Assembly (NCBI GenBank): GCA_023511455.1
Contig: JAIMBJ010000011.1
Span: 13,637 to 77,636, forward strand
Origin: Bacillota bacterium
GTDB taxonomy: Bacteria; Armatimonadota; HRBIN16
Direction of reading: 5' to 3'
Length of the DNA: 64,000 nucleotides
This document shows positions 2,489 through 57,071 of this stretch, piece by piece (position 1 is the stretch's first letter; each line of letters opens with the position of its first letter). The position numbers were made by a program, and so were the translations under genes. Below the pieces are notes generated by a model, which searched no databases, had not been told where the DNA came from, and was given only the letters and a program-made list of their open reading frames with translations.

Positions 2489-2654
2489 CGCTGCCTCCTA
2501 TCCTCCTGTATTCTTAACGAAGTGATACCGTGTTGGGAAGAGAGTGAGTTTGTGACTGCGGTGCCAGAGCAAACTCACCATGTTATTATATGCCCAGATT
2601 TGCCCGATGTCAAGCAGAGCATGGGGGTGGTCAATCAGCCATTCACCTTCTGGA

Positions 2655-4008: not shown

Positions 4009-5106
<1,098 letters not shown>

Positions 5107-5137
5107 TCAGAGAAACCCCTCTTCGTCAAGGGTTCTC

Positions 5138-5167
5138 TTGACAAGAACGCCAGATTGTGGCTATAAT
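5138..5167 (+). promoter_or_regulatory. Near-consensus sigma70 promoter (TTGACA-N18-TATAAT)
   Basis: ttgacaagaacgccagattgtggctataat: the -35 box TTGACA sits at 5138-5143 and the -10 box TATAAT at 5162-5167. The predicted transcription start is near 5175. It lies in the AT-richer gap/HNH intergenic region. Confidence 0.5.
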
Positions 5168-5175
5168 ACAATTGC

Positions 5176-5372
5176 ATTACTTGGGTGAGGTAAAGTGATA
5201 CCATTTGGACGATATAATGTTAACCTTAGATTAGCCACCGGGCGATGGCATTACTGGGGGATTGCGGTGCAACAGGATAAGCACTGGCGTCATCATCGCT
5301 TCGGACACGTGATGCGTATCCGATACAGCTAATCGCGCAAGCCCGCTGCCGTGTCCGCAGCGGGTTTTTTCG
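5176..5372 (+). ncRNA. Candidate small RNA or 5' leader/attenuator of about 200 nt, bounded by a consensus promoter and an intrinsic terminator
   Basis: No ORF of 60 aa or more occurs between the promoter at 5138-5167 and the rho-independent terminator at 5338-5371. The terminator ends about 27 nt before the RBS and ATG of the HNH gene. Confidence 0.25.
5338..5371 (+). terminator. Rho-independent terminator (8-bp GC-rich stem plus a T6 tract)
   Basis: aagCCCGCTGCcgtgtccGCAGCGGGtttttt. The T-tract follows the hairpin only on the plus strand. Confidence 0.6.
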
Positions 5373-5397
5373 TTACCGTAGTAACAGGGAAACAATC

Positions 5398-5940
5398 ATG
5401 TGGGAGACGGACAGACAGGTTCTGGTACTGAACAATGACTACGAGCCGCTGAATGTGTGCAACGTGCGGCGCGCGCTGGTGCTCGTGCTGCTGGGCAAAG
5501 CAGAGGTGCTGCACGTGGATGGCGTTCGTCTGCGCACCGTGGACAGAGTGATTCAGGTGCCGTCGGTGGTGAAGCTGCGCTATCACGTCAAGCGCCCCCT
5601 GCCTGAACTCAAGCTCACGCGGCGCACCATCTTCGCCCGCGACGACTACACCTGCCAGTACTGCGGCTACCGCGGCAAAGATTTGACGGTAGACCACGTG
5701 GTGCCCAAGCGCCTGGGCGGTAGCGACGACTGGGAAAACCTGGTGACCTGTTGCCGTAAGTGCAACCTGAAAAAGGGAGATAAACCCCTGCATCAGACGG
5801 GCATGACGCTGTTGCGCCAGCCCCGCCGCCCACGCTACGTGCCCTACATCAGCCTGAGTAAGTATATCGAGGGCGCAAAGAACGAGGTGTGGCGCAACTA
5901 CCTGCCTTTCTTCAGCGACGTGACCCCTTCACAGGACTGA
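5398..5940 (+). CDS. HNH endonuclease family protein (about 180 aa)
   Basis: HNH motif DHVVPKRLGGSDDWENLVTCCRKCNLKKGDK. An RBS (agggaa) lies 6 nt upstream of the ATG. Confidence 0.8.
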   Translation: MWETDRQVLVLNNDYEPLNVCNVRRALVLVLLGKAEVLHVDGVRLRTVDRVIQVPSVVKLRYHVKRPLPELKLTRRTIFARDDYTCQYCGYRGKDLTVDHVVPKRLGGSDDWENLVTCCRKCNLKKGDKPLHQTGMTLLRQPRRPRYVPYISLSKYIEGAKNEVWRNYLPFFSDVTPSQD

Positions 5941-6118
5941 CCTCGGCAAGGGGGTCGGTCCCTCGGCACCTCTTCTGCTAAATCGTCCAGCACCAGTACG
6001 CAAACGGCATCTACTTGTTTCAACCGTACTTCGTTGGTGAGGAACGCATCGCACCGATGTGTAGCATGGTTAACGTCACCATCTGGCATCACCCGCATCC
6101 TTATACCGCATTTCCGCA

Positions 6119-6291
6119 GAGGGTGTTCGAAATGGGTGGTTAGAATGAACAGATCACCTAACCACCTTGCCCTCTTCCCTGCGAGGAAAGGGGGGAACGC
6201 CCCTCTCCTCGTAGGAGAGGGGGTGAGGTAAAGCAAGACCGCCTCTCTCCTTGCGCTGCAACCAACTTCTCAACAATTCCCGAACACTCTC
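6119..6291. mobile_element. MITE-like non-autonomous element, copy A (173 bp), with terminal inverted repeats and 9-bp target-site duplications
   Basis: Terminal inverted repeats GAGGGTGTTCG...CGAACACTCTC. It is flanked by a perfect 9-bp direct repeat ATTTCCGCA (6110-6118 and 6292-6300). Three internal palindromes are present: ggtggtta..taaccacc, cccttccctgcgagggaaggg and ccctctcctcgtaggagaggg. It is about 85% identical to the copy at 56887-57071. Confidence 0.6.
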
Positions 6292-6300
6292 ATTTCCGCA

Positions 6301-6328
6301 TGACATCCTCCTCTAAAAGCGGTACAAT
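6301..6328 (+). promoter_or_regulatory. Putative hisF promoter (TGACAT-N16-TACAAT)
   Basis: tgacatcctcctctaaaagcggtacaat lies immediately downstream of the right target-site duplication of MITE copy A. The RBS gagggg is followed by the ATG at 6357. Confidence 0.45.
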
Positions 6329-6356
6329 AGAGGTGGTATCACCTGAGGGGTCAACA

Positions 6357-56886: not shown

Positions 56887-57071
56887 GAGGGTGTTCCACA
56901 TTGGTGGTTGAATGGAGGATCACCTAATCCCCTTGCCCCCTTCCCTGCGAGGGAAGGGGGAACGCCCCTCTCCTCGTAGGAGAGGGGACGGGGTGAGGTA
57001 AGACAAGGGGTAGCAAGACCGCCTCTCTCCTTGCGCTACAACCAACTTCTCCACAATTCCCGAACACCCTC
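56887..57071. mobile_element. MITE-like element, copy B (185 bp), with a perfect 10-bp terminal inverted repeat and a 9-bp target-site duplication
   Basis: Terminal inverted repeat GAGGGTGTTC...GAACACCCTC. Flanking 9-mers are GCCTCTCCT and GCTTCTCCT (8 of 9 match). It carries the same internal palindromes as copy A and ends 9 bp before the tRNA-Leu -35 box. Confidence 0.6.

Follow-up and report, generated by a model that had tools for sequence, protein, structure and literature searches.

What is encoded by a transcription unit of about 200 nt that runs from a promoter to a terminator, contains no long open reading frame (ORF) and ends directly in front of a nuclease gene? Such a unit precedes the gene for an HNH endonuclease in a 64,000-nt stretch of Armatimonadota DNA (the window; GenBank contig JAIMBJ010000011.1, positions 13,637–77,636 of the forward strand), and a preliminary description of this stretch offered two answers, an independent small RNA (sRNA) or a cis-acting, riboswitch-like leader whose terminator controls the HNH gene. 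Comparison with related genomes points to a different answer. Its substitution patterns identify the unit as a conserved 45-codon mini-gene with its own promoter and terminator, and we hold with moderate confidence that the translated ORF and the intrinsic terminator behind it form a ribosome-coupled attenuator of the pyrE/pyrBI type. Everything past the coding call rests on comparative inference.

Several observations indicate that the leader ORF is protein-coding. First, the same frame is open for 43–47 codons in about 20 relatives, and in all of them the sequence TGAGG(T/G) is followed 4–7 nt on by a GTG codon, or by ATG in a few. Second, substitutions follow the codons. Variable sites in the conserved block number 6, 6 and 17 at codon positions 1, 2 and 3, and pairwise codon differences comprise 130 synonymous and 120 non-synonymous changes in the ORF frame, versus 37 and 212 in one of the other two frames and 21 and 225 in the second. 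Third, the variable N-terminal half, some 20 residues that are almost wholly different between lineages, is free of stop codons in 10 lineages, an outcome with a joint chance probability of 7e-5. The C-terminal block, QQDRHWRHHRFGHVMR, is invariant across the relatives; the peptide closes with an invariant QQD(R/K)HWRHHRFGHVMR and then 3–4 free residues. These patterns are those of an ORF under protein-level purifying selection. It had been noted that the unit holds no ORF of at least 60 amino acids, which is literally correct, but the implication that it is ORF-free does not survive the finding of a selected 45-codon ORF with a Shine-Dalgarno sequence and a GTG start. A promoter-to-terminator unit without a long ORF can therefore be coding, which is a caution for sRNA prediction.

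The peptide gene also recurs beyond the genomes in which it was recognized, always with the same partner. A profile search with the peptide matched three public proteins of 45–51 amino acids, all called 'hypothetical protein', and on the contigs of two of them (P0121 and P0123) an HNH gene follows 64 nt after the peptide gene, in genomic surroundings not met before. When metagenomes were scanned with a codon-degenerate DNA pattern for W-x-H-H-R-F-G-H/Y-V-M-R, 10 loci were recovered, all with the order ORF, terminator and HNH gene, and in every locus found the peptide gene strictly adjoins HNH. Such conserved microproteins or leader peptides are almost always missed by gene callers, as only three called clusters among 5.8 billion represent this family. 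With 7 Arg, 1 Lys and 5 His the peptide is strongly basic, and it is rich in His, Arg and Trp; in the window all five His codons fall among the last 16 codons of the leader, with one HH pair only. Searches of the peptide against Pfam, NCBIfam and PADLOC returned nothing meaningful, and AlphaFold2 predicts a single generic helix of low confidence (predicted local distance difference test score, pLDDT, 67).

The promoter, the terminator and the conserved part of the ORF are maintained together with the HNH gene. The closest relatives of the HNH protein are encoded by metagenome-assembled genomes (MAGs) of Armatimonadota, the best genome match being 'Bacterium HR16' (L056) at 97% identity, and orthologues at 91–97% identity are all preceded by a gene-free stretch of ~370–640 nt. 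The genes flanking these orthologues vary: gap/pgk in some, elsewhere an unknown gene, a peptidase or BioY. Promoter and terminator are nevertheless kept in about 20 related Armatimonadota sequences, so the leader unit appears to travel with HNH and not with the neighbors. TTGACA-N18-(T/C)ATAAT followed by ACAATTGC, the first transcribed bases, is found in all 14 relatives for which upstream DNA was available. An alignment of the upstream regions shows that the promoter, ACAATTGC, a block of ~70 nt and the whole terminator with its tail are near-invariant, while the middle ~70 nt of the leader cannot be aligned even between close relatives. Third codon positions of HNH differ by 28–44% between the same genomes, which argues that the conserved leader parts are under selection.

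The sigma-70-type promoter and the strong intrinsic terminator, both of which had been recognized earlier, are well supported. The promoter matches the consensus at 12 of 12 positions and is present again in relatives with different flanking genes. The terminator has 11 stem pairs and a 7-nt loop, folds at −19.2 kcal/mol (z = −3.9 versus shuffled sequences) and is conserved in relatives. Only 6 nt separate the stop codon of the leader from the terminator stem at the window locus, and the T-run ends 26 nt before the ATG of HNH. No promoter-like site was seen when this 26-nt spacer was inspected. Because there is no room for a promoter between terminator and ATG, the HNH gene must be read through the terminator, and we infer that it is made only from transcripts that pass this point. 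The terminator is near-invariant in about 20 relatives (window 5339–5378; L001–L011, L056 and L097–L108), including its loop, CGUGUCC, and its tail, UUUUUCGUUAC. Since a plain terminator should tolerate changes in the loop, an extra constraint is likely, perhaps the binding of a protein or peptide. The window coordinates of these features are collected in Table 1. A second promoter with a 12/12 score (TTGACA-17-TATAAT; window 2585–2613, minus strand) lies ~95 nt ahead of a membrane-protein gene starting at 2487 on the minus strand, whose product looks by eye like an H+-pyrophosphatase; perfect consensus promoters thus serve ordinary genes in this genome.

Table 1. Window coordinates of the leader unit, the HNH gene and the neighboring gap gene
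Feature	Position	Strand	Details
Sigma-70-type promoter	5138..5167	+	TTGACA 5138-5143, 18-nt spacer, TATAAT 5162-5167; consensus score 12/12
Predicted transcription start	near 5173-5176	+	Approximate position
Short 5' untranslated region	5174..5194	+	Shine-Dalgarno TGAGGT 5186-5191, 4 nt ahead of start codon
Leader micro-ORF, 45 codons	5195..5332	+	GTG start, TAA stop 5330-5332; peptide MIPFGRYNVNLRLATGRWHYWGIAVQQDKHWRHHRFGHVMRIRYS
Conserved C-terminal peptide block G22-R43	5258..5323	+	Core QQD(K/R)HWRHHRFGHVMR; amino acids invariant, third codon positions variable
Intrinsic terminator, proposed attenuator	5339..5371	+	Stem 5339-5349 / 5357-5367, loop CGUGUCC, T6 5366-5371
26-nt spacer	5372..5397	+	Holds HNH ribosome-binding site AGGGA; no promoter-like site
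HNH nuclease gene, 180 aa	5398..5940	+	PLMP-like N-terminus, IshB-like architecture; predicted expression by read-through
Divergent gap gene	4009-5022	-	Neighbor on promoter side of leader unit

A non-coding model, in which the RNA structure itself would respond to a ligand or work in trans, with an ORF present by accident, would account for the discrete promoter-to-terminator layout, and the plus strand has a modestly stable fold (z = −1.34). Single-sequence folds of the two strands are not clearly better than those of shuffled sequences, the second z score being −2.13. The region 4900–5600 gave no Rfam match above the E = 0.5 level and none even at E = 10, HEARO (omega RNA) included; a scan of the whole window returned one match at gathering score, a tRNA. 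RNAalifold, applied to 7 and then to 14 relatives, supports the terminator as the only helix, with one covarying pair (G-C, G-U or A-U) at its base. Among the 32 predicted pairs, two-sided changes are confined to this terminator base pair and a weak 5-bp stem that is broken in 3 of the 14 sequences, and no conserved aptamer helix with compensatory changes was found among these relatives. A search for antiterminator pairing likewise found none that is conserved: folds computed without the 3' arm of the terminator have z scores of +0.43, −0.28 and +1.92 and differ between relatives. Together with the codon periodicity, the synonymous excess, the retained Shine-Dalgarno sequence and start codon, and a central 70 nt that cannot be aligned among close relatives, these results make the incidental-ORF model scarcely credible, and the sRNA and riboswitch models are, on this comparative evidence, essentially excluded. 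The outline of the cis-acting leader proposed in the preliminary description stands, as the terminator is positioned to control HNH through read-through; its riboswitch-like part, for which neither aptamer nor antiterminator was found, does not, and the leader is evidently translated.

Two more specific RNA models were rejected. A 6S-RNA-like rod does not fit the minimum free energy structure, which is multibranched and lacks a closing stem. Type III toxin-antitoxin systems such as ToxIN resemble the locus in their series of promoter, short upstream unit, terminator and nuclease gene, and in a terminator that sets the ratio of the products. However, no tandem repeats were found in the leader unit upstream of HNH, the upstream unit here encodes a peptide, and the locus behaves as a conserved chromosomal gene and not as a mobile defense island.

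Evidence on how the mini-gene might act comes from the rest of the phylum. In most other Armatimonadota lineages HNH is preceded by a consensus-like promoter, 150–250 nt of sequence and a strong terminator. While the HNH proteins are 55–70% identical across the phylum, the leader peptides differ between clades, and a hidden Markov model of the window peptide found no significant match outside the HR16-like clade in three-frame translations of all other Armatimonadota leaders. Several of the leaders of other clades are rich in His, as in ...LQHRHAVHHAH... and VHLHYLHHVHHHHDV, and some contain HHHH or 9–11 His residues; those of Fimbriimonadales have no regulatory His run in the selected frame. 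Synonymous wobble is also seen within the leader frames of two Fimbriimonadales groups (MLTHGLNGFDCERWSTGSWFGTRGRYRCR and ...WRDTIIR...). What recurs is the position of the stop codon. With curated stem positions, the stop codon of an ORF of 25 or more codons falls within −3 to +1 nt of the G+C core (5' arm) of the terminator in 9 of 17 lineages (null expectation 5.4%; binomial P = 6e-8), with junctions such as TAA-GCCCGC, TAG-CCCGC and TGA-CCCGC. The ORF stops inside the hairpin in four further lineages, and in the window's clade 6–10 nt before the extended stem. By this count over 17 lineages the leader ORF typically ends at or inside the hairpin, the arrangement expected of a pyrE/pyrBI-type attenuator. 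The comparison indicates that it is the geometry of stop codon and terminator, not the sequence of the peptide, that is conserved across the phylum. Because the peptide is unconserved between clades in which HNH remains 55–70% identical, a regulatory leader fits better than an obligate protein partner.

A variant of this geometry is seen in Fimbriimonadales and Chthonomonas loci (L030–L033, L035–L037, L039–L043 and L047). Some 60–200 nt upstream of HNH, a selected frame (e.g. ...PPxMWRDTIIR...) crosses the terminator-like hairpin and often ends at or over the HNH start codon, as ATGA, TGATG or an overlap of 2–11 nt. This overlap of leader and HNH suggests translational coupling; part of these overlaps could, however, arise by chance where GC-rich sequence gives way to a ribosome-binding region richer in AT. 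Two further features recur among otherwise unrelated leaders. GUGU-type loops are present in terminators of other clades (GUGUG in many Fimbriimonadales and Chthonomonas hairpins). Trp followed by His or Arg appears in unrelated leader peptides, as HWRHH, MWHHH, HWHPR, RWRTG, RWSTG, MWRDT and LWHRQ (the window, L018, L022, L024, L030, L036 and L046), and two clades share W-x4-5-F-G-x3-R-x-R, seen by eye. The recurrent patches of the form W-[RH]-[RH], likewise noticed by eye, are hints of distant homology or of a shared functional motif.

Orthologues of HNH outside the phylum are arranged differently. The unit of promoter, ORF and terminator is absent from the HNH loci of Chloroflexota and Acidobacteriota. 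Four Chloroflexota orthologues (L051–L053 and L057) have, ~20–45 nt before the HNH start, a −10-like TACGAT, a conserved hairpin, CCAGCCGAGUCCCGGCUGG, and then an AGGGAG ribosome-binding site; ORF and terminator are both absent, and this leader may regulate the gene family in a different manner. In Acidobacteriota (L070, L075, L086, L089, L094 and L096) the gene immediately ahead of HNH has a phosphoribosyltransferase-type motif (...VDDV.TTGAT...) at its end and looks ComF-like by eye, and in Eremiobacterota/Vulcanimicrobiaceae (L079 and L088) HNH follows what appears, by eye only, to be a cluster of tRNA genes.

These findings are most readily joined by a ribosome-coupled attenuator. A short ORF that is led by a Shine-Dalgarno sequence and is under selection between promoter and terminator, as found here, is expected of a leader-peptide attenuator. 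The ribosome is proposed as the antiterminator because no RNA antiterminator was found and because stop codon and terminator are repeatedly juxtaposed behind unrelated peptides. The strong promoter would give rise to a transcript of ~200 nt that encodes the 45-residue peptide and ends at the terminator. A ribosome reaching the end of the ORF while RNA polymerase sits at the terminator would cover or unwind the 5' arm of the hairpin and thereby suppress termination. If the ribosome were absent, late or stalled on the C-terminal peptide or on the His, Arg and Trp codons, the hairpin would form and transcription would stop. The peptide would then act in cis. A conserved C-terminal segment behind a free N-terminal one is the pattern required of a ribosome arrest peptide, and the conservation of the window's leader resembles that of nascent-chain regulatory peptides generally. 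We speculate that the conserved C-terminus may pace or arrest the ribosome, and that the His, Arg and Trp codons may make this pacing sensitive to supply.

Some features of the locus sit less easily with this attenuator model. In the window's clade the stop codon lies 6–10 nt before the stem, so that a ribosome terminating there would reach no further than the hairpin's base. The invariant C-terminal 20 residues exceed the needs of simple coupling and could instead belong to a microprotein. The near-invariant loop and tail of the terminator are left unexplained by attenuation, and a stop codon beside a terminator is also to be expected of any small gene that simply has a terminator of its own.

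The main rival reading, which we think rather unlikely, is that the leader is an independent microprotein gene. The 45-residue basic peptide would then be a cofactor, a nucleic-acid-binding subunit or an inhibitor of the nuclease; the terminator would set a high ratio of peptide to nuclease, and translation would have no regulatory role. The C-terminal block, conserved in amino acids with synonymous variation, is what such a gene would show, as is the constant adjacency to HNH, and the consensus promoter and strong terminator predict an abundant small product and scarce nuclease. Its strongly basic composition also counts in favor of this reading, and the ORF is called as a protein in three MAG annotations. 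However, the peptide family is undetectable outside one clade even though HNH is widely conserved, and the Chloroflexota and Acidobacteriota orthologues have no such partner. The N-terminal half evolves almost freely, and the predicted structure is the one low-confidence helix described above. Finally, a microprotein model does not call for stop codons to fall, again and again, at or within the terminator of clades whose peptides are unrelated.

The attenuator model may be compared with several characterized systems. In pyrE/pyrBI attenuation the ribosome itself prevents the terminator hairpin from forming, so that no RNA antiterminator is needed, and the downstream gene is expressed by read-through. 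In Escherichia coli rph-pyrE the distance between stop codon and attenuator loop sets the level of read-through (PMC2784333). At these loci as in Armatimonadota, the ORF upstream of the regulated gene stops shortly ahead of a terminator hairpin or inside it. Unlike them, the leader described here has a C-terminus that is conserved in amino acids, the regulated gene encodes a nuclease where the pyr genes encode biosynthetic enzymes, neither a U-rich pause region for the polymerase nor a nucleotide signal was identified, and in the window's clade the stop codon lies 6–10 nt upstream of the stem and does not abut it.

The hisL and trpL leaders similarly place a Shine-Dalgarno-led short ORF enriched in particular codons just after the promoter, and a terminator before the structural gene. 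In contrast, the present leader lacks the alternative 1:2, 2:3 and 3:4 hairpins, its His codons do not form one long run, and residues without a regulatory role are conserved too. The logic would also be inverted, since stalling here would favor termination. HNH is unrelated to histidine, and the synteny with the nearby hisF is not conserved. The candidate of a histidine regulon, which would join the His-rich leader to hisF downstream, was rejected on that absence of hisF synteny in relatives and on a promoter-like site that hisF has of its own.

Among arrest peptides, TnaC, SecM and MifM share with the leader a free N-terminus, a conserved segment of ~20 residues that ends a few codons before the stop, an invariant Trp with basic residues, and a position upstream of a putative target gene. 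TnaC works through Rho, and SecM and MifM through unfolding of the mRNA for translation, whereas the element here is an intrinsic terminator. The leader has no similarity to known arrest motifs, and stalling on it is hypothetical.

The downstream protein appears to belong with the smallest relatives of IscB and Cas9. Pfam recognizes an HNH domain only (PF01844 and PF14279) in its 180 residues. The best NCBIfam match is the model of the RNA-guided endonuclease IscB, guided_IscB, in two stretches (E = 8e-21, below the family cut-off), and the best matches in the Protein Data Bank are the HNH domains of IscB and compact Cas9. Residues 8–42 alone match positions 1–35 of guided_IscB, the position of the PLMP domain, as their sole match and collinear with the HNH match, at E = 0.089. 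An hhalign comparison with the PLMP sequence of DtIsrB places the PL motif in register, although not significantly, and Foldseek lists IsrB (8dmb), which is without an HNH domain, with a probability of 0.98 over 61 columns and a root-mean-square deviation of 7.4. The N-terminal motif itself is PLNV, not PLMP. IshB proteins combine PLMP and HNH in ~180 amino acids (PMC10734217, PMC11610941, PMC13284715), and with an HNH domain of IscB/Cas9 type, no RuvC domain and ~180 residues the window protein has this architecture. The gene is termed IshB-like because of its PLMP-like N-terminus and IscB/Cas9-type HNH domain in a protein of this size; its membership is provisional, and the PLMP assignment is weak. 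One trait expected of IshB, residence in an IS200/IS605 element, was not found, given housekeeping neighbors and no flanking inverted or direct repeats, although TnpA was not explicitly searched for. In Armatimonadota, Chloroflexota and Acidobacteriota alike, the family is present as one copy per locus among housekeeping genes, and the gene shows vertical inheritance. PADLOC returned generic HNH matches only. The IshB literature gives the domain architecture with predicted or hypothesized roles, and no reported activity or regulation was found in it.

This kinship brings in a further reading, which we regard as very improbable: the leader transcript would be an RNA partner of the nuclease, comparable to a proto- or vestigial omega RNA, and the PLMP domain would bind the transcript or its 3' hairpin and tail, giving autoregulation or a ribonucleoprotein from a dual-function transcript. 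There is precedent in IsrB, whose PLMP domain grips the terminal hairpins of an omega RNA beside the Shine-Dalgarno sequence of its own gene (PMC9581776). The leader likewise is a unit of ~200 nt, roughly of omega RNA length and position, directly before the gene of a small, putatively PLMP-containing, Cas9-related nuclease. Its hairpin lies near the ribosome-binding site, 26 nt ahead of the start codon for a PLMP-like protein, and neither its stem nor its loop (CGUGUCC) nor its tail (UUUUUCGUUAC) varies, in genomes whose HNH third codon positions diverge by 28–44%. Of the readings considered, only this speculative one would explain why loop and tail do not vary. Unlike the omega RNAs of IscB and IsrB (HEARO), the leader unit is protein-coding and shows no guide segment, no Rfam match and no multi-helix covarying scaffold beyond the terminator. 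Variation within the transcript body follows the codons, and the sequence of the hairpin differs freely in other clades. The locus is outside an IS200/605 element, single-copy and vertically inherited within the phylum, and the PLMP assignment is doubtful for the reasons given (E = 0.089; hhalign not significant).

The leader peptide and the omega-RNA-like partner could also be combined, which is improbable as well: the PLMP-like domain would grip the invariant 3' hairpin, loop and tail, and the nascent peptide would stall the ribosome to time the gripping. If this were true, the locus would represent an OMEGA relative that had been domesticated and was passed on vertically, retaining its RNA binding for autoregulation or ribonucleoprotein assembly, and would offer the first functional clue for IshB.

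To return to the ribosome-coupled attenuator, its building blocks are already known, and we found no description of their combination before an IshB-like gene in the literature searched. The same literature describes no leader peptide, microprotein or attenuator for IshB-type or other small HNH genes, nor any in Armatimonadota, and within it the earlier statement that no leader RNA is known for this family of HNH proteins stands. Of all relatives of IscB and Cas9, the IshB-type proteins are the most poorly understood. Here an IshB-like gene is a stable chromosomal gene across a whole phylum, with a dedicated promoter, mini-ORF and terminator, and the locus gives a testable handle on the timing of the nuclease. 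To our knowledge, ribosome-coupled intrinsic attenuation is so far known mainly from enterobacterial pyr genes; if the attenuator model is correct, the mechanism also operates in a phylum far removed from these bacteria, and on the gene of a nuclease.

Downstream of HNH, ~360–410 nt separate its stop codon from hisF (window 5941–6353) and contain no convincing gene on the plus strand. The promoter-like site before hisF (ATGACA-17-TACAAT, 6300–6328) overlaps the start of the longest hisF ORF, so the true hisF start is probably the ATG at ~6358. The same intergenic region holds copies of a repeat of the type GGAGAGGGG(N)GGGGTGAGGT (GGAGAGGGGGTGAGG-type; window 6170–6240, and again at 56979–56999), within which a 10-bp hairpin, CCCCTCTCCT-CGT-AGGAGAGGGG, is located at ~6201–6223. 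A run of 13 nt, GGGTGAGGTAAAG, is common to one repeat copy (6221) and the Shine-Dalgarno region of the leader ORF (5183–5195), an overlap that is probably coincidental.

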